Positions 1 through 10,253 of a stretch of 49,003 nucleotides of DNA are shown here, in pieces. This stretch comes from Nanobdellota archaeon (GTDB taxonomy: Archaea > Nanobdellota > Nanobdellia > Woesearchaeales > SKGA01), in assembly GCA_051819745.1 (NCBI GenBank), contig JBNJGO010000004.1, forward strand, positions 1 to 49,003, given 5' to 3'. A program made the position numbers and the translations under genes. The notes beneath the pieces are model-generated. The model saw only the letters and a list, made by a program, of their open reading frames with translations. It ran no database searches and had not been told where the DNA came from. Position 1 is the first letter of the stretch. The number at the start of each line of letters is the position of its first letter.

Positions 1-201
1 TTACAATTTTCTTGGATGCTTTTCATCGCGGAAACAGTGTCAGGATCGATTGCCATAAAGAAAAGAAAAGAGAACTACTATATAAATATTATTTTTTTTT
101 ACTACTTTTAAGTTAAAATAATAGTTTTTTTTAAAACAAACAACAAAACCACCACCTAAAAATCAATAATTATTGAGAGAAAAAAACAACATAATTATTT
201 A

Positions 202-753
202 TTAATCCAACTGTTTGAAAAAAGTTTTTTTCAAAGGGAAACATAATTGTTTATTCCTGAGAACATCAACTTCATCCCAAATATATTTTGAAAATAAATC
301 AGATCTCAAATCAGAAATTAATTTCTCTACAACAGCATCATCAAAAAATCGTTTCATAAGTTCTTCAGCAACGATATGAACTGTTGCTTCTAATCTTATT
401 TCATTTATACTATTTTTAGATAAAAATAAATCATAAAAATTATTTTCAAAAAATATATTATGAGTTAATAAGCGAAAAAAATCAAAAAAAATTTTATTAT
501 TCTGTTGATTAACATTTAATAAATTAGGTCTCGATATCGAAGGATATGTACCTAAAATTAACCAAAAAGAATAAGAATTATTTTTAAAATTCAAACCAGA
601 CAGTTTATTCAAATTCGAAATTAAATCAGTTTGATATTTATTTACAAATTTATTTAGCACAAGCAATTTCGATTCAAAAAAAGTTTCATCAAATTTTAAG
701 TGTAAAAAACCATCCACTAAAGGAAAGGATGTTTCAAAAGTAATACTAATCAT
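202..753 (-). CDS. RiPP-cluster accessory protein; HExxH-degenerate paralog of 2696..3250 (family not recognised)
   Basis: ORF 202..762 starts at TTG. The first ATG, at 753, overlaps the stop of the SagB-like gene (ATGATTAG, 746-753). It is collinear by eye with the 184-aa ORF 2696..3250: ITFETSFPL/VTFQTSYYL, FWLILGTYPSISRPNLLNV/VWLFHGWQPSTSTPLLLNT, FFDFFRLL/FFNLVHEL, EIRLEATVHIV/YIELEAIVNTV. It has THNIF where the paralog has HELIH. A T7 run follows the stop on the coding strand. Confidence 0.6.
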   Translation of the reverse strand: MISITFETSFPLVDGFLHLKFDETFFESKLLVLNKFVNKYQTDLISNLNKLSGLNFKNNSYSFWLILGTYPSISRPNLLNVNQQNNKIFFDFFRLLTHNIFFENNFYDLFLSKNSINEIRLEATVHIVAEELMKRFFDDAVVEKLISDLRSDLFSKYIWDEVDVLRNKQLCFPLKKTFFKQLD

Positions 754-1480
754 ATTTCCCAATGACCCCCATATAAATTATTTTTTCATCATCCGGAAAA
801 TCTAAGAACTCATTTATCCCATCATCTGTGAAACCACCAATCGTACAACAACCTAAATTCAAATTTTCTGCAACTAAATACATGTTTTGAGCTAAATGAC
901 CTGCATCTAAATAAACATAACGAAAAGATCTAGCACCATATTTTATTTGGGCCCTGTCATAAGGACTTGAAATCATAATTAAAACAGCAGAATCCAGAAC
1001 CATATCTTGCGAGATAAATTTATTTAAGGTAGGTATTTTAATTTCTTTGATTAAAAGCTCTAAAGAATGAGATAAGACATCATAATGATAAATACCTGGT
1101 TCGACACCTACACAATTTTGTACAGCAACATATATTTCAATTGGAAATCTTGCTCCTGCTGAAGGATAAGCTCGTCTAGTATCATCTAATGACTTTACGG
1201 AATTTGAATTTGTAATTCCTGCTGAAAAAAATAACAAGGTTGATAATTCTTTAATTGTAATCGGTTTTTTATTAAATTCTCTACGAGATTTTCGTTTTAA
1301 TATCAGTTCGAATAAACTATCGCTTTTAATATTCGGTTCAGGTAAATTAATTTTTTTAAATCGAGGGTATGATTTAAAATAAATTTTAACCCAGGATTTA
1401 GGAGTAAATTTAGATGAAGCTCCATCTAGAGAAAAGATGTTTGTTTTTTCGTGTAATTCTTTAAATGTTGTCATTTTCAT
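746..1480 (-). CDS. SagB-type (nitroreductase-fold, FMN) dehydrogenase of azole RiPP pathways
   Basis: 244 aa. Nitroreductase/SagB-like motifs: KRKSRREF, RRAYPSAGARFPIEIYV, YLDAGHLAQNMYL, GCCTIGGF...DDEKIIYMGVIGK. The ATG overlaps the YcaO stop (ATGA at 1477-1480). Confidence 0.85.
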   Translation of the reverse strand: MKMTTFKELHEKTNIFSLDGASSKFTPKSWVKIYFKSYPRFKKINLPEPNIKSDSLFELILKRKSRREFNKKPITIKELSTLLFFSAGITNSNSVKSLDDTRRAYPSAGARFPIEIYVAVQNCVGVEPGIYHYDVLSHSLELLIKEIKIPTLNKFISQDMVLDSAVLIMISSPYDRAQIKYGARSFRYVYLDAGHLAQNMYLVAENLNLGCCTIGGFTDDGINEFLDFPDDEKIIYMGVIGKYD

Positions 1481-2703
1481 ACAAATGGATGTGGAATCTT
1501 ATTTAATTTTTGTTTTTTAATTCGAGGACCAAAAAAATATTTAAAATGTTCAAATAAATATAGTGGATGTAATTCAGGAATAATTGTTTTATATACAAAA
1601 AAACCAGCATTTCTTGTTTCTTTAGAGGTTAAATTTTTTGTAAAAACAGTAAAATTTTTTTCAGACAGTAAATTCAAAACATTTTTGAGATAATCAGATT
1701 TAGAAATTTTAATTTTTAAATTTTCAATCGATGTTTTTCGTGGAGTATAAAGAATAAAATCAAGATGTTTAATCATAGATGATGAAGACCAAAATAAACC
1801 TCTATCCTCAATAGAACTCATATTTTTTTCATCTTTAATTGATTTTCCTTCAATTAATTGGTATCTAATCCACAATCTAGTATGTTGTGCTTCAAGAATC
1901 GCCCCTTTTGTAGCTAACAAGACATCCCAATCAGTTTTAGTTCCTATAGAAATAGCAGGTCCAACACCACTCCTATCAACAAGCACACATAGAATTGTTG
2001 GAATTTTAATATCTGTTGTTATATCAAAAAAATAAGGTTCTAAAAAATATCGCTTCATTCGAGAAATTATCTCATTTAAATCAGAATCATTTATAGAATC
2101 AATGTTTATTTTAATAGGTGACCTTTTTTCCAAATAAGTTAACATAAATGAATCTCGTTCTATAAGTTCACAGATTCCTTTGTAAATTGCTTCTTCTTTG
2201 GTTGATGCGCACGCAGCACCATTACTTATTGGTAATCTTAATACTCTTTCTTTATTTGAATAAGGGACATAAATTAATTGCGAAGGTAAATAAATATCTT
2301 TATTATTTAATATATCAAAAACAGAAATCCAATTAAATTCTTCATCATGTAACTCTTGCTTCAAAGAATAAGTTATTTTTTGGTTATTAACAAAACGCAC
2401 AGGATCAATAGCATTATCCAATTGATTAAAATTTTTTTTAATACCTATTTCAAAATTTGAGGATAGTTCAAATCGCTCAATACATTCTCCCATTGCTTTA
2501 ATTTGTGCTTTGTTATCAGTTAAAGAAAGTCCAGAACCTTGATTATCATCATCTTTTATAAAATCAGGTAAACCATTCACATTCATAAACGCAGTATACT
2601 GAAAAAACTTAGGCTCATCTGTAAATTGAAATGATTTCTGAAGTGAAGAAATAATTTTATTTTGTTCAAGCATTGAACGCATTCTACTAAGCGTATTATC
2701 CAT
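1477..2703 (-). CDS. YcaO-family cyclodehydratase
   Basis: ORF 1477..2715 starts at TTG. The first ATG, at 2703, overlaps the upstream gene's stop (ATGGATAA, 2696-2703). YcaO hallmarks: GSGLSLTDNKAQIKAMGECIERF, SNGAACASTKEEAIYKGICELIERDSF, and a Pro-rich C-terminus (KIPHPFV). At about 408 aa it is a YcaO domain only, with no fused E1-like domain. Confidence 0.9.
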   Translation of the reverse strand: MDNTLSRMRSMLEQNKIISSLQKSFQFTDEPKFFQYTAFMNVNGLPDFIKDDDNQGSGLSLTDNKAQIKAMGECIERFELSSNFEIGIKKNFNQLDNAIDPVRFVNNQKITYSLKQELHDEEFNWISVFDILNNKDIYLPSQLIYVPYSNKERVLRLPISNGAACASTKEEAIYKGICELIERDSFMLTYLEKRSPIKINIDSINDSDLNEIISRMKRYFLEPYFFDITTDIKIPTILCVLVDRSGVGPAISIGTKTDWDVLLATKGAILEAQHTRLWIRYQLIEGKSIKDEKNMSSIEDRGLFWSSSSMIKHLDFILYTPRKTSIENLKIKISKSDYLKNVLNLLSEKNFTVFTKNLTSKETRNAGFFVYKTIIPELHPLYLFEHFKYFFGPRIKKQKLNKIPHPFV

Positions 2704-3250
2704 ATGTTTCACCAAACCATTTTGAAAAAGAAATATTTTTACGTTTAATGAGAGTATTTATTTCTCTCGTACGAATCCAAACATATTTATAAAAACCACC
2801 GAACTCAGCATGAAAAGATAATTCTTCAAGATCATCTTTGGAGAATATTTTTTTAAGAACTCGTATTAAAACCGTATTCACGATTGCTTCAAGTTCAATA
2901 TAATCCCATTCTCCAAGATTATTTTTAATTGGAATATACATAATATTTTGATGAATTAATTCATGAACAAGATTAAAAAAACAAAAATTTAACTGCTCAC
3001 CATAAGTGTTTAAGAGTAAAGGTGTTGAAGTACTTGGTTGCCATCCATGAAATAACCAAACATCAATTTTTTTAATAGGCCATCTCACACCCGTTTCTGT
3101 TTCAATTGCTTTTAACAAATAAGATTTATGTTTGAAAAATAAATTTTTCAATTTTTCTAAAAAAGCATTAAGTTTTTCTCTATTATAAGGAACACAAATT
3201 ATCTTTGATTGCAGATAATAACTTGTTTGAAAGGTTACTTTAACGACCAT
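2696..3250 (-). CDS. Putative HExxH metallopeptidase-like protein (RiPP-cluster accessory; family not recognised)
   Basis: 184 aa. ATG at 3250 is preceded by AGGT. HELIH (aa 96-100) is encoded at 2951-2965. It is a paralog of ORF 202..753 and lies between the precursor-like ORF and YcaO. Confidence 0.6.
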   Translation of the reverse strand: MVVKVTFQTSYYLQSKIICVPYNREKLNAFLEKLKNLFFKHKSYLLKAIETETGVRWPIKKIDVWLFHGWQPSTSTPLLLNTYGEQLNFCFFNLVHELIHQNIMYIPIKNNLGEWDYIELEAIVNTVLIRVLKKIFSKDDLEELSFHAEFGGFYKYVWIRTREINTLIKRKNISFSKWFGETYG

Positions 3251-3292
3251 ATTAATTACCTGAAAATAAATTAAATAAAAAAAAAAGAAAAA

Positions 3293-3493
3293 TCAATCCA
3301 CTTTTGATTCGAGCATATCTTCGGTAACTTTACAACCATAACAGCCACCACCACAAGAACGACAACCAGAACATTTTGATGCATTCGAAACAGCATCATA
3401 TGGTTTTAGAGGACTTTCTTTCATTGAATCGGTATCCAATTTGTAAGATAAATTTGGCTTATAAGAGTTTTTTAAAGTATAAACTCCATTCAT
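3293..3493 (-). CDS. Candidate RiPP precursor peptide (Cys-rich core CSGCRSCGGGCYGC)
   Basis: 66 aa. The ATG is preceded by GGGGG 7-11 nt upstream and by an AT-rich TATA-like tract. The N-terminal ~40 aa are leader-like with no Cys. The core has five Cys at aa 41-54 (nt 3332-3373) interleaved with Gly/Ser, followed by an acidic tail VTEDMLESKVD. It lies immediately 5' of the modification genes. Confidence 0.65.
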   Translation of the reverse strand: MNGVYTLKNSYKPNLSYKLDTDSMKESPLKPYDAVSNASKCSGCRSCGGGCYGCKVTEDMLESKVD

Positions 3494-3762
3494 TTTAAAA
3501 CCCCCGACGGAAACCCATCAAAGTAAATTTTAATTATAATATATTTAAATCTTTGGTTGATTTTTGGAAATAAAATTTAAAATTAAAAAACTTAAGAACC
3601 AATCAAAAACAATAAATAATTATTATTTCTTATTCATAAAATTTTTTTAATGTATATTTATCATAATTCATCATAAATAAAACAAGACATAAGAATATAA
3701 GCAATACAAAAATAAAAATAAAAAAATAAACCAATCTTAAAAAACAGCATCTAATCAGTCAG

Positions 3763-5991
3763 TTAACCATAATAACTCGGTTTCTGATCTTTCATCTGTT
3801 GACCTTTTGCCGAAGAGAACTTATCTTTAAGTTCTTGATACGAATCTTGGATTTCCTTAGAAGCACTTGGTGTAACTTTTTTCAAGGCTTTATTGAATGA
3901 TGACATTGAAATACTGTTAGTATCAATATTTTTACGCATTTCAATCATGACAGCTTCACGACAAACAGCTTCAATATCAGCACCGACATACCATTGCGTG
4001 TTATTAACTAACGTGTCGATATCAACATCTTTATCCAATTTCATACCATCCAAATGAACTTTAAAAATAGATCTTCTCGCTTCAGCATCAGGAGCATTAG
4101 CGAGAACAATACGATCAAAACGACCAGGTCTTAGTAGCGCCGTGTCCATAACATCAGGCCGGTTCGTTGCCGCGATGACAACGACGTCATTGAGTTCTTG
4201 AAGCCCATCGAGTTCAGTAAGTAATTGGTTAACTGCATTCATACCACTTTCGCTGGACGCGTTTTGTTCAACTTTACGATTCGAAGTGATCGCATCAATC
4301 TCATCAATGAAAATGATGGAAGGAGAAACTTGACGTGCTTTTTCAAATAATTTCTTGACAAGCTGAGGTGTTTCATTCACCCATTTGGAAAGCAATTCAG
4401 GACCTTTTACAGCAATAAAATTTGCTTCGCTTTCCTTAGCAACAGCCTTTGCAAGCATCGTCTTTCCGGTTCCAGGAGGACCATACAGTAAAATACCTTT
4501 TGGAGGCGTTACACCAAGACGTTGAAATTTATCTTTGTGTTTAAGAGGCCATTCGACAGCTTCAATAAGATCTTGTTTGACTTCTTTCAAACCACCAATA
4601 TCATCATATTTGACATTTGGCGTTTGCACAAGAACTTCTCTCATCGCGCTTGGGCGAACAGATTTGAGAGCTTCAAGCAAATCTTTATGAGATATACTGA
4701 CGTTTTCCAACACTTCTTGAGGAATAGAATCTTCTTCGCTGAGCTTTAGATCAGGAAGTAACCGTCTTAAGACAACCATTGCAGCTTCTTTGCAAAGAGC
4801 TGAGAGATCCGCACCAACAAAACCATGAGTGATACGAGATATTTTTTCAAGATCAACATCATCAGATAAAGGCATGTTTCTTGTGTGAATCTTGAGAACG
4901 TTTTTACGACCGTCTACTGAAGGAACACCAATTTCAATCTCACGATCAAAACGACCAGGACGGCGAAGCGCCTGATCAATAGAATTAACAATATTTGTCG
5001 CGGCCATAACAACGACTTTTCCTCGAGTATTCAAACCATCCATAATCGCAAGTAATTGCGCAACAACTCTCCGTTCAACTTCACCTTTAGATTCTTCACG
5101 TTTAGGAGCAATAGCATCAATCTCATCAATGAAAATGATGGAAGGAGCATTCTCTTCAGCGTCTTCAAAAATCTTTCTAAGATTCTCTTCAGATTGGCCG
5201 TAAAATTTACTCATTATTTCAGGACCATTGATAACATGAAAATTACTATTTGTTTCGTTAGCTACCGCTTTTGCAAGAAGGGTCTTACCAGTTCCAGGGG
5301 GACCATGAAGTAAAACACCTTTTGGAGGTTCAATCCCAAGACGTTCAAAGATTTCAGGATGTTTGAGTGGAAGCTCGACCATTTCACGAACTTTTTTCAC
5401 TTCATCACTAAGACCACCAATGTCCTCATAGGAGACTTCAGGAACTACAGGCTCTTCTTTGAGTTCGACAGCTTCGTTTAAGAATTCCACATCAGTATCT
5501 TTAGTGACAACAACAGGAACTTTTTTTGGATCTGTAGATACAGTAATAAACTTGATATCACCAAGACCAAAGCGAGAAAAAGTACCTCCAAGGGAGATAA
5601 GATCACCTTTTTGAACAACACGAGAATTTAGTGCTCGATTGAAAAATACGGGATTATCAACCTTTATCTTGATACCTTCTCGTGCGGGAGCGATAGTCAC
5701 TTTATGAGCTTCTTTTACATCCGCTTTTTCAACGACAACATATTCTCCAATACTAGTTTTTGCATTTCGACGGACTAAGCCATCCATACGAATAATGTTA
5801 AGCCCAATATCTCCTGGAAGAGATCGTTCAACAAGAACTGTCGTTGATCGCTCGCCAGAAATAGTTACAAAATCTCCGGGATTAACATCTATTTTTCTCA
5901 TGTAAGAGCTATCCATACGAACAATGCCTTTATTGACATCTTCTTGGATAGCTTCAACAACTTTCAAATGAATTTGTGGTGTTTCAGTCAT
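3763..5991 (-). CDS. cdc48: CDC48/VCP-like AAA+ ATPase (two AAA domains)
   Basis: 742 aa. It has a double-psi-barrel-type N domain, two Walker A motifs (GPPGTGKT twice), two Walker B motifs (IIFIDEID twice), and RPGRFDR twice. AGGTGAT precedes the ATG. Confidence 0.95.
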
Positions 5992-6623: not shown

Positions 6624-7628
6624 TTATTGTTCCAGGGTGTCTGTTTCAGCGAGAAAACGGATTCGTCGGTATTCAGCAAGCGCATAAGAAGCGAATGTTT
6701 CGTTATGTATAACTAGCACATTTTCATCATTATTTTCTCGGGCGTTCTTGGTTGGATTGTACGATCCCATGACAGTGGTAGAATTATCGATGATAAATAT
6801 TTTTTCATGCATAAAACCAGGATTCGCATCAGTTAATACGTCAAGACCATGATCGCGAAATAATGGAAGCTCACTATAAGGATTTTGTCCGGAGCTTTCA
6901 AAAACCCCACTGACAGTAACGTTTTTTGAGATGTTAATAACTGTTTGCCCGAGAGCATCACTTGTAAACATAAAAGAAAGTATTCTAAGATGAGATTTTG
7001 TCGTTTTGAGAGTGTTTGAGAGTAATGATTCGCATTCTTGGACCGGACTAAAACACACATCAATCATAGAACCAGAAAGATTAACGTGATAAGGTGTTTG
7101 AGGATGAAAAAAAGTTTGAGAATCGGAAGAGGATGTTGTTTTAATTCGAGACCATTCTTTGAAATATAATTGTGCAATTTTTTGAGAACGAACCAAAACA
7201 ATAGCATTATCGTTTAAATACGAACCAGTGAAAGTAGGATTCCACGTTCCTGTAAGTACTGTTTTATTGTTGAAAATACAAAATTTATGGTGCATTAATC
7301 CTTTGCTTGAAACAGGGCTTATATAAGAATGGTTTGATAGCTCGGTGGAACAAGAATCTTCAAAAATCAATGAATTTGTTTGATTGAGAGTAGAGTTGAA
7401 TAAGTCGGGATCAATATCATAAAACGCACAATAAGCAGATTCTGATTCGTTGATAAGAGTGTTAAGAAGGAAAGGACAATTATGATCCTGACAACTGAAA
7501 AAATCGACCGAACCACTATCTGAAAAGGTTGTTTGAACTAGAAAAGAAGGTTGATATATCCAGATTAAACCTGCCAGATACACTAGTAAGAATAGAGAAT
7601 AATATATTGCTCGTCGAGGAAAATACAT
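6624..7628 (-). CDS. Phospholipase D/nuclease-superfamily (HKD) protein, N-terminally membrane-anchored, probably extracytoplasmic
   Basis: There are two HKD-type motifs: MHHKFCIFNNKTVLTGTWNPT (Asn in place of the motif Asp) and MHEKIFIIDNSTTVMGSYNPT. The N-terminus has a TM helix (YYSLFLLVYLAGLIWIY). There are many N-x-S/T sequons. The ORF starts at TTG 7640; the first ATG is at 7628. Confidence 0.8.
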   Translation of the reverse strand: MYFPRRAIYYSLFLLVYLAGLIWIYQPSFLVQTTFSDSGSVDFFSCQDHNCPFLLNTLINESESAYCAFYDIDPDLFNSTLNQTNSLIFEDSCSTELSNHSYISPVSSKGLMHHKFCIFNNKTVLTGTWNPTFTGSYLNDNAIVLVRSQKIAQLYFKEWSRIKTTSSSDSQTFFHPQTPYHVNLSGSMIDVCFSPVQECESLLSNTLKTTKSHLRILSFMFTSDALGQTVINISKNVTVSGVFESSGQNPYSELPLFRDHGLDVLTDANPGFMHEKIFIIDNSTTVMGSYNPTKNARENNDENVLVIHNETFASYALAEYRRIRFLAETDTLEQ

Positions 7629-8513: not shown

Positions 8514-10253
8514 TTATCGCTTCTTTTTGTACAAAAGTAACAACAAAGACAACATCACAAGAATAGAAAGAGAAGAACCAAATATAAATCCATTCCAAAA
8601 AGAACGATCAAAAGAAAGAGAAAAAGTTGATTCTTGGGGAAAATACCCTGAAACATCACTAAGGTGAAGAGCATATTCGGTAAATAACAAAGCAGAAACA
8701 GGATCCTCTTGAGCGAGGACTTGAGAATACTCATAATAACTATACCCTAAAATAGGAAATCGATCCAAGGCAATTGAAGAAGAGAGTATTTCTGCTGTGC
8801 GATTTAATTTTACATCAAGAAGAGGTTGATTTGCAGATTCGGGCAAAGTAAGTGTCGAGATAAATAATTCAGAGTGAGCTTTTGCCTTGGAGGCTTTAAA
8901 CAATGCTAGAGCATATTCCTCGTCATTAAAATACTGTTGAGCTTGATTAATATTTTCGGAAACACTTGATAATAATGAAGGAGCAACCATCGTACGCAAT
9001 AACGTATAACGGACTTCAGCATTATGAATTTCTTCAAGGGAAGCACTTTTCAGATGAGGAGTGTCAAGTTGGAGCGAGGGACCGTCAAGACCAAAAAATG
9101 AAGACCATACAACCGCACTATACTGTCTTTCCAACGCATAAGCTAATAGAGAGGTAGAAATGTTGCTCGTGTTTATTTCATCAAGATACTGTTTTGATTC
9201 TAATAATCGTTCCTTGACAACAACATACGCTTCAAGATCAGAGAACGTAGAAAGAGGTTTATTGTCAACAATAGATTCACTGCGCTCTATGGCCGAATAA
9301 AGAACATCATAGGATTGTTTGAGTTCTTCTTGTGAAGTGTTTTGAAGAAGTAATTGTCGCAAGCGAAGATTAGCAGTATAACAATATGAAGCTCTCGAAT
9401 ACCATTTTTTGTTTGAAGAAGCATTTTTTGAATTGTTAAAAAAATCACGAGCGTACGTGAATAAGGAAGAATTAGACTCAGGTACTTGAGATAACAAGGA
9501 CTGGGTTCGATTACAAAGCAAATCAGATGTGTGTTTCATCGTTGAAGAATATGCTTTTGAAGGGGAAGGAGCATCGTATTGAGAAAGCTCATAGGAACCA
9601 TTTGATGCAATTGCCAACGCTTCACGAACAGTAGATATAGGAAAAATATCGACAGATACATTTTTTGAAAGTTGTGTGAGATTAAGTGGTTGAGAAGTGA
9701 CGTTTGACGAGTTTGAAAGAGAGTGATTTTTTAGAGGAATAAAAGAAAATTTAGGGACAAACACAGTATTTATCGAAGAGGAATGATCTGCTGCTGAAAT
9801 TTTTTCTTTAACACCGGAAACAGGAGTTATTACACCGCCAGAACTAATAGCTCCAGTCATCGCTATCGAATCAGGAAAAGGAATGTCTTCAAGAAGAGCG
9901 AGCGTGAGTAAAGCAGTAGCCCCGCCCGCACTTGGACCACCAATTATTGAAGAATCGGCTTTTATCGTGTAAAAAAAATCAAAGGAAGAACAATCCTGAG
10001 AAGAAAGGTCACAAGCTATTTCATTAGCAATACGAGTGGCAGTTTGAGTGTCAAGTTGAGAGGAAGGAAATGATTGGATAAACACATCACCACTCCCTCC
10101 AGATTCCATTCTCAATGAAAGACTCGCAGTACCACCTATTTGCGTACCATTATCAAGAATTTTTACAGAAAGAAGCGAAACGCTATCGCTGACCGAAAGT
10201 ACAGGTAACGCGCATAAGACCAGAAATATGAGTAGTAAAAGTGGAAATCGCAT
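8514..10253 (-). CDS. Lon-protease-domain (S16) protein with signal peptide and C-terminal TM anchor; no ATPase domain
   Basis: 579 aa. The N-terminus is signal-like (MRFPLLLLIFLVLCALPVLSV). S16 catalytic-region motifs: IIGGPSAGGATALLTLALL and MTGAISSGGVITPVSGVKEKISAA. There are many N-x-S/T sequons. The C-terminus has a TM helix plus KKKR. Confidence 0.75.
   Translation of the reverse strand: MRFPLLLLIFLVLCALPVLSVSDSVSLLSVKILDNGTQIGGTASLSLRMESGGSGDVFIQSFPSSQLDTQTATRIANEIACDLSSQDCSSFDFFYTIKADSSIIGGPSAGGATALLTLALLEDIPFPDSIAMTGAISSGGVITPVSGVKEKISAADHSSSINTVFVPKFSFIPLKNHSLSNSSNVTSQPLNLTQLSKNVSVDIFPISTVREALAIASNGSYELSQYDAPSPSKAYSSTMKHTSDLLCNRTQSLLSQVPESNSSLFTYARDFFNNSKNASSNKKWYSRASYCYTANLRLRQLLLQNTSQEELKQSYDVLYSAIERSESIVDNKPLSTFSDLEAYVVVKERLLESKQYLDEINTSNISTSLLAYALERQYSAVVWSSFFGLDGPSLQLDTPHLKSASLEEIHNAEVRYTLLRTMVAPSLLSSVSENINQAQQYFNDEEYALALFKASKAKAHSELFISTLTLPESANQPLLDVKLNRTAEILSSSIALDRFPILGYSYYEYSQVLAQEDPVSALLFTEYALHLSDVSGYFPQESTFSLSFDRSFWNGFIFGSSLSILVMLSLLLLLYKKKR

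Follow-up and report, generated by a model that had tools for sequence, protein, structure and literature searches.

Here, we describe a five-gene cluster near the start of a 49,003-nucleotide stretch of DNA (hereafter, the window) from a Nanobdellota archaeon of the Woesearchaeales (contig JBNJGO010000004.1 of assembly GCA_051819745.1, positions 1 to 49,003 of the forward strand). The five genes are tightly packed on the minus strand between bases 202 and 3493 and, according to the list of open reading frames (ORFs), follow the order precursor-A-YcaO-SagB-B. The YcaO and SagB genes encode predicted peptide-modifying enzymes, and the genes on either side of them, A (2696-3250, minus strand) and B (202-753, minus strand), encode two small proteins of 184 and 183 residues. 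An initial annotation, made from the letters of the window alone, had pointed to the ORFs of A and B as a paralogous pair of one enzyme and one pseudo-enzyme, and both ORFs are indeed present on the minus strand. Our follow-up analysis supports such a pair of peptidase fold, in which A is a minimal, gluzincin-like zincin predicted to be an active metallopeptidase, and B appears to be its catalytically dead paralog.

The remaining three genes identify the type of the cluster. YcaO (1477-2703, minus strand, with its ATG at 2703) is a cyclodehydratase of the SagD type, matching PF02624 with an E-value of 2e-48 and the SagD model TIGR03604 with an E-value of 2e-57 and 194.6 bits, which is under the cutoff of 219.25. 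Only about 60 residues precede its YcaO domain as delimited by Pfam, and its C-terminus reads PHPFV, the YcaOs of the clusters considered here terminating in PHPF[VL]. SagB (746-1480, minus strand) is a flavin mononucleotide-dependent dehydrogenase of the SagB type (TIGR03605, E 5e-43; PF00881, E 4e-25). The precursor gene (3293-3493, minus strand) was recognised from the ORF list and from homologous small ORFs upstream of A elsewhere; its 66-residue product consists of a leader, the core CSGCRSCGGGCYGC (nt 3332-3373) and a conserved acidic tail at the C-terminus, KVTEDMLESKVD (nt 3296-3331). The locus thus combines a YcaO, a SagB dehydrogenase and a Cys/Ser/Thr-rich precursor, as expected of a cluster for thiazole/oxazole-modified microcins (TOMMs) or linear peptides that contain azol(in)es (LAPs), which belong to the peptides that are made on ribosomes and modified after translation (RiPPs). 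Adjacent genes overlap: the stop codon of A and the start of YcaO by 8 nt (junction ATGGATAA), YcaO and SagB by 4 nt, and the stop codon of SagB and the start of B by 8 nt (junction ATGATTAG). The length of B is counted from an ATG, and an alternative TTG at 762 would add three residues. Among named relatives, the one nearest to B stems from a Candidatus Woesearchaeota metagenome-assembled genome.

The paralogous proteins A and B

The similarity of A and B, first noticed by eye, is significant in formal comparisons. With BLASTP the two proteins are 27% identical over 162 residues (E 2e-10), and a profile-profile comparison in hhalign of 17 A-type with 19 B-type sequences aligned 182 columns with a probability of 100% and an E-value of 5e-46. 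The HELIH motif of A (H96, E97 and H100; nt 2951-2965, minus strand, as located by the initial annotation) falls within a predicted helix of residues 87-102. In the profile alignment it stands opposite RLLTH of B (nt 460-474, minus strand), its degenerate counterpart, in which the first His is replaced by Arg and the catalytic Glu by Leu, and the second His is retained. The initial annotation had stated that B lost both His ligands, and this detail needs to be corrected, as only the first His and the Glu are gone; its wider proposal of an enzyme and a pseudo-enzyme is supported by the homology, the structural matches and the conservation of the motif.

The residues H96, E97, H100 and E121 are invariant in the A orthologs (17/17 sequences, down to 30% identity). 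E121 (nt 2888-2890, minus strand) lies 20 residues past H100 in a predicted helix of residues 117-132 and is, from sequence and predicted secondary structure, the candidate third zinc ligand of an HExxH-x20-E site. The nearby E119 is not invariant in the 17-sequence alignment, and E121 is the sole Glu conserved across the wider family.

AlphaFold2 gave confident models for both proteins, with a predicted local distance difference test score (pLDDT) of 93.3 and a predicted template modelling score (pTM) of 0.90 for A, and a pLDDT of 88.3 and a pTM of 0.88 for B. In the predicted topology, a strand and a short helix precede a helix of 30 residues, after which come two strands and six helices. 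The two models share the order of their elements: a small sheet of three strands, a long helix backing it, the helix with the motif, the Glu-bearing helix and further helices. Both clades keep an S-x-P-x-(L)LN strand before the motif helix, which would line the substrate cleft, as well as the Glu of a downstream LEA motif. In a Foldseek search of PDB with the A model, all 50 matches listed were gluzincin catalytic domains (M1/M30 for the top ones), including those of IRAP, ERAP1/2, aminopeptidase N, the lanthipeptide peptidase EryP and lugdulysin, with probabilities of up to 0.98 and a best E-value of 0.027. None of the three results that the initial annotation had named as refuting it was obtained: we found significant similarity of A and B, a conserved HExxH in the orthologs and, for the confident A model, matches to zincin peptidase catalytic domains only, these with weak E-values.

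Neither protein matches a curated family, and the initial annotation had likewise been unable to place either in a known one. Searches of A and B against Pfam and NCBIfam (E up to 1), PADLOC and the PDB sequences gave no match, and those against PHROGs gave non-significant matches only (E 0.06 or worse). In a hidden Markov model search of 1.84 billion cluster representatives, 226 sequences had E-values of up to 1e-3; almost all of these relatives are 150-215 residues long, and most of them retain HExxH; the last homolog search, run with a 144-sequence alignment, returned 20 proteins. When 144 relatives were compared with Pfam, the scattered weak matches were to zincins only (SprT-like, WLM, M64 and Aspzincin). 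The best match of the family profile in PDB was the minigluzincin proabylysin (4jiu; E 0.18), over 30 positions that cover a strand and the HExxH helix. From its model, its signature and these weak zincin matches, we assign A to a family of minimal zincins that is uncurated and whose signature is gluzincin-like; in favour of a place among the gluzincins are the motif, its spacing, the predicted secondary structure and structural matches that are consistent though statistically weak. Our literature searches turned up no earlier account of the family or of this type of cluster. Its distant HExxH members are stand-alone genes beside unrelated genes, such as NUDIX. A viral origin was ruled out, as no relatives were found on IMG/VR contigs, and membership of a defence system was ruled out by the lack of a PADLOC match.

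In B-type proteins the loss of the catalytic Glu is general. Among the 32 HExxH-less sequences listed, the corresponding position is never Glu and is L, M or I in 28; the other four (G, K or F) are short divergent members or lie outside the YcaO-linked B clade. The position of the first His is variable (H, C, Y, R, S, N, E and others), and most of the sequences still have the second His and the Glu of the downstream LEA. The motif differs by locus, with H-M-[LM]-[IV]-H in L009 and L014 (HMLIH in L009), C-L-[LI]-T-H in L003 and L007, and R-L-L-T-H in the window, and it looks as if the metal ligands were eroded stepwise after the general base had been lost. The family thereby offers a clean natural case of pseudo-enzyme formation, with the catalytic Glu gone in every B and the metal ligands eroding lineage by lineage.

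B is under purifying selection and is not decaying, because its ratio of nonsynonymous to synonymous substitution rates (dN/dS) of 0.27-0.32 is near those of YcaO (0.24) and SagB (0.14); the ratio for A is 0.16-0.29. Every complete cluster has a full-length B at an unchanged position, even though the lineages differ so far that their B proteins are only about 25-30% identical, and public data hold about 30 B-type clusters at 50% identity. In neighbour-joining bootstraps, A and B together split from the relatives that are stand-alone HExxH genes in 52 of 60 replicates; B was monophyletic in 31, A in 12, and matching A and B subclades appeared in 3-4 of the 60, which gives no support to a strict co-phylogeny of the two. 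Each B is about equally distant from all A proteins, and B evolves faster than A. The equal distances fit one old duplication, after which B evolved faster.

Two further observations concern HExxH-less members of the family. A 433-residue protein (P0038) has a B-type zincin with HMMVH as its N-terminal 127 residues and about 300 unrelated residues after them, and is either a fusion or a chimeric assembly. A third clade of acidic, HExxH-less proteins (P0052, P0054, P0063 and P0152; positions 7001-7585 in L025, L026 and L027) may represent an independent pseudo-zincin with a different role. On contigs of up to 611 kb, P0052 is encoded immediately upstream of an archease-RtcB tRNA-ligase pair and overlaps the start of the archease gene, with no YcaO nearby.

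Cluster types, precursors and orphan pairs

Pattern-based scans for the cluster were insensitive, yielding one locus in GTDB genomes and five in JGI metagenomes, and most of the genomic context was therefore taken from exact-protein look-ups. Whether the pair co-occurs with YcaO in other genomes had been raised with the initial annotation, and it does so in a fixed order with YcaO and SagB in every diverged lineage with a sufficiently long contig. The order precursor-A-YcaO-SagB-B is found in at least six diverged lineages (the window, L003/4, L005-8, L009/16, L014/15 and L032/33), and the incomplete contigs L010, L012 and L013 are consistent with it. These type I clusters hold neither an E1-like partner nor a RiPP recognition element (RRE); A and B are the sole further conserved genes. 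In the window, searches against Pfam and NCBIfam showed no E1-like partner, separate or fused, in the operon or in the rest of the 49 kb.

A deeper A subclade (L029-31, with L028 partial) has the same order plus a sixth gene between A and YcaO. In these sister clusters, which we call type II, the additional gene encodes a truncated SagC-like protein of 177-201 residues (L029:7580-8113; L028:884-1489) that scores 44-48 bits against TIGR03882, over the cutoff of 36.9. This protein aligns to positions 138/163-297 of the 319 positions of TIGR03603, and to residues 105-245 of ThiF, 204-349 of MccB and 154-224 of TruD. Of the Rossmann part only about half is present; two CxxC pairs are retained, and the protein offers no space for an N-terminal RRE. 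Nothing similar to it was found anywhere in the 49-kb window.

Homologous precursors are encoded upstream of A in L003, L007, L009, L013, L014, L028, L029 and L032. All precursors are tripartite, with a variable leader of about 19-54 residues, a core of CxxC repeats (5-9 Cys) and a tail of 5-27 residues, which in the close relatives of the window is strongly conserved as KVT[ED]DMLE[AS]K[LV] (KVTEDMLEAKLD type). A conserved C-terminal tail may imply two trimming events or, by analogy with bottromycin, a C-terminal recognition sequence; as the length of the leader varies so widely, recognition of the precursor may likewise be C-terminal and resemble that of a follower peptide. The net charges and isoelectric points of A, B and the precursor segments showed no systematic complementarity. 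In L029, the likely type II precursor is a 77-residue ORF at 6751-6984 (...SSKCGGSCGPTCTSCSCSSCSNCSGCNCSSCG...), and the gene given there in the source record (6827/6854-6973) is a different ORF.

The pair also occurs without the rest of the cluster. In one shallow Woesearchaeota lineage, A adjoins B with overlapping stop and start codons (L001:9457-10552; L002:245-1340; L011:7001-8096), and compared with the complete cluster in L003, which is 91-92% identical at the nucleotide level, the precursor gene and the YcaO-SagB segment are precisely absent and A and B are intact. The dN/dS values of the orphan A and B against those of L003 are 0.16 and 0.27. The three contigs end 45-103 nt past B, and L001 and L011 are 99.95% identical. 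The persistence of an A-B locus without YcaO, SagB or a precursor argues that A and B act together, and it says that they form a unit of their own.

Possible roles of the pair

We give an even chance to the reading that we favour, in which A and B are an enzyme/pseudo-enzyme pair and form the precursor-handling module of a five-gene archaeal operon for a TOMM or LAP-type thiazole/oxazole peptide. YcaO and SagB would first make thiazoles on the Cys-rich precursor. A, which on the basis of its HExxH and the Glu 20 residues downstream is a putative zinc endopeptidase, would then remove the leader, the conserved C-terminal tail or both from the modified precursor. B, devoid of the catalytic Glu and of one His ligand, would keep the fold together with the strand and helix segments for the substrate cleft and serve as a non-cleaving partner that binds and positions the precursor or stabilises A, probably within a heteromer and in a manner like that of TldE. 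Zinc binding and peptidase activity of A are predictions from its motif and model, and contact between A and B and binding of the peptide by B would follow from the same scheme.

Several findings weigh against this reading. The structural matches of A are weak by E-value, and their TM-scores are 0.42-0.53; for B alone, Foldseek returned non-significant matches only (E of about 1 or worse), with aminopeptidase N on top. From lineage to lineage, the residues preceding the first Cys of the precursors (K, Q, S or G) resemble each other only loosely and define no cleavage site. The HExxH proteins of RiPP clusters are not all hydrolases (PMC12636437). Finally, the pair model leaves the absence of an RRE or E1-like partner unexplained.

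The closest functional parallel is TldD/TldE, whose active complex removes the leader of microcin B17; metal is bound by TldD only, and TldE, a diverged paralog, is required for that complex (PMC10885120, PMC5810440). Both systems consist of paralogs of which one carries the metal motif and the other is dead, and the substrate is a thiazole/oxazole-modified peptide in the known case and probably also in that of A and B. However, the two are unrelated in fold and size, with HExxxH in TldD/TldE (MEROPS M103) and HExxH-x20-E in A, and the subunits of M103 have about 450-480 residues as compared with about 184 in A. TldD and TldE are, in addition, housekeeping proteins whose genes lie outside the cluster, in contrast to the genes of A and B, which are part of the cluster and sit on either side of those for the modifying enzymes. 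Chains of TldD or TldE were absent from the PDB sequence search and from the 50 Foldseek matches listed, and A and B have no Pfam or NCBIfam match. In the heteromeric M16 RiPP peptidases PttP1/PttP2, AlbE/AlbF and PqqF/PqqG, one subunit is inactive. They resemble the pair in that two paralogous subunits of peptidase fold act together (PMC10885120 for PttP1/PttP2 and AlbE/AlbF), and differ from it as large clam-shell proteins of an unrelated family with an inverted HxxEH.

In its motif and predicted helices, A resembles the gluzincin domains of thermolysin-like and M1 peptidases (including AplP and EryP), which carry HExxH on one helix and the Glu ligand on the next. Unlike A, a stand-alone domain of 184 residues, M1 peptidases have about 850 residues in four domains and an HExxH-x18-E spacing, and the aligned A clade shows neither a GxMEN motif nor a match to Pfam Peptidase_M1. 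The minigluzincins proabylysin and projannalysin, soluble minimal zincins of about 105 residues, are likewise archaeal, single-domain HExxH proteins, and proabylysin is the best profile match; yet the E-value of that match is only 0.18, and A exceeds them by about 80 residues and has four additional helices at its C-terminus. To our knowledge, neither a RiPP context nor a dead paralog has been reported for minigluzincins. The partners SagC, BalhC, McbB and Ocin-ThiF-like (E1-like plus RRE) share with the pair their place beside a SagD-type YcaO in a TOMM operon, and in L028-L031 the truncated SagC-like gene sits exactly between A and YcaO. In contrast to these partners, A and B have a predicted zincin fold and no similarity to TIGR03603, TIGR03882 or PF00899 (E up to 1). 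Their topology also differs from that of the RRE, a winged helix of three helices and three strands with about 85-100 residues, and RRE chains were not among the structural matches. A hidden E1-like or RRE identity of A or B, as for AmiB of the streptamidine cluster, was rejected because of the zincin topology of the confident models and the zincin structural matches.

The metalloprotease families listed among RiPP leader peptidases are M1, M16, M50, M61 and M103 (PMC10885120). By analogy, the A-B pair would work like TldD/TldE or the heteromeric M16 peptidases, and it is not a member of the M103, M16, M1, RRE, E1-like or alpha-ketoglutarate HExxH families. What is new is a minimal zincin family that occurs as an active and a dead copy inside a TOMM cluster without a canonical partner; the logic of pairing with a pseudo-enzyme was already known. 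If our favoured reading is true, the RiPP peptidases would gain a compact new family, a cluster-encoded zincin of 180 residues whose dead paralog is obligate, and A could serve as a portable, sequence-specific processing tool. The pair is furthermore an entry point to the YcaO peptides of archaea, and our literature search found no characterised YcaO peptides from DPANN lineages.

Another role for the pair, tentative and in our view rather unlikely, overlaps with the precursor-handling model and is compatible with it: B, maybe together with A, would replace the SagC-type E1-like-plus-RRE partner by binding the precursor and presenting it to, or activating, the partnerless YcaO, with proteolysis being secondary. 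A recognition role is favoured by the missing or truncated partner, as an E1-like or RRE protein is absent from type I clusters, whose only other conserved genes are A and B. The truncated SagC-like protein of type II, with none in the 49-kb window, suggests a reductive series that unfolded in the presence of A and B, its starting point in a full-length SagC being assumed and not observed in these lineages. The overlaps of A with the start of YcaO and of SagB with the start of B agree with such a role, as do the PHPF[VL] termini, since a proline-rich end is characteristic of azoline-forming YcaOs (PMC8442711), which normally have a partner. For haloazolisin clusters, Cox et al. proposed that leader binding must fall to an uncharacterised protein (PMC4603692). 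However, the deletion of YcaO, SagB and the precursor left A and B intact and coupled anew, and YcaOs free of a partner exist, for example that of bottromycin (PMC8442711), with the precursors described here also having a conserved C-terminal tail. The fold of A and B is, moreover, neither a winged helix nor E1-like. We also know of no pseudo-zincin that acts as a RiPP recognition element, and if partner replacement were true, it would represent a new structural class of such elements, derived from the substrate cleft of a protease. SagD-type YcaOs normally require an RRE/E1-like partner, and the pair makes it testable how partnerless azoline-forming YcaOs recognise their substrates.

The orphan loci bring up a further proposal, which we regard as improbable, namely that A and B do not mature the thiazole peptide, and instead degrade or sequester it in its mature form, be it the cell's own or a neighbour's, for self-protection or scavenging. 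The orphan pair is intact without a precursor or modifying enzymes, with the dN/dS values against L003 given above, and neither a transporter nor any other candidate for an immunity gene is present in the cluster. The retention of immunity genes after the loss of production genes is common for bacteriocins. Nevertheless, the orphan locus comes from one shallow lineage only, the deletion is possibly too recent for decay to be visible, and, with the three contigs ending shortly after B, the orphan genome could encode a YcaO and a precursor elsewhere; among TOMMs, we know of no precedent for a soluble zincin pair as immunity. It is very unlikely, in turn, that A is a non-hydrolytic HExxH metalloenzyme, such as an Fe/alpha-ketoglutarate oxygenase that hydroxylates the precursor or removes its C-terminal tail oxidatively. 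The idea draws on PflC and PosC, alpha-ketoglutarate-dependent HExxH enzymes of RiPP clusters that oxidatively cut off a C-terminal tetrapeptide (PMC12636437), and on the conserved C-terminal tail of the precursors here. Yet the structural matches listed for A are all hydrolytic gluzincins, and its third conserved ligand is a Glu at gluzincin spacing. The comparison of A with NCBIfam at E up to 1 gave no family and hence no match to the HEXXH-domain model; the InterPro entry of these oxygenases, IPR026337, presumably corresponds to TIGR04267. The oxygenases are also more than twice the size of A. Hardly credible, finally, is the notion that B is a decaying duplicate without a function of its own. 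Its evolution is faster than that of A, and the ligands erode from HMLIH in L009 over CL[LI]TH in L003 and L007 to RLLTH in the window, but the notion is contradicted by the conservation data, that is by the dN/dS of 0.27-0.32, by a full-length B in constant position in every complete cluster and by the roughly 30 B-type clusters in public data.

Genomic neighbourhood of the cluster

The neighbouring genes in the window are of the housekeeping type and encode CDC48, a PLD-like protein, a Lon_C-domain protein, a RIO kinase, PGK and LeuRS. The four 1-kb bins that contain the cluster (window positions 1-4000) have a G+C content of 26-28%, and later bins 30-41%. Between L001 and L003, the synonymous divergence (dS) is about 0.22-0.24 for A and B, compared with 0.72 for an adjacent MopE-like gene. 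The low G+C content of the cluster bins and this gap in dS suggest that the cluster moves or recombines between lineages.

The MopE-like gene lies immediately upstream of the cluster (L003:89-3952; L001:5548-9417) and encodes a Cys-rich, secreted-looking protein of about 1290 residues with Pfam Cu-binding_MopE matches. It is present beside the cluster in the two lineages L001 and L003, and neither in the window nor in the other lineages. Its position might hint at a connection with the Cys/thiazole-rich peptide, for instance in the handling of copper or another metal. In the window, a 579-residue protein encoded at 8514-10253 has the Lon_C (S16) proteolytic domain as its sole Pfam match, without an ATPase domain; its N- and C-termini are hydrophobic, and it resembles a membrane-anchored Lon-like protease.

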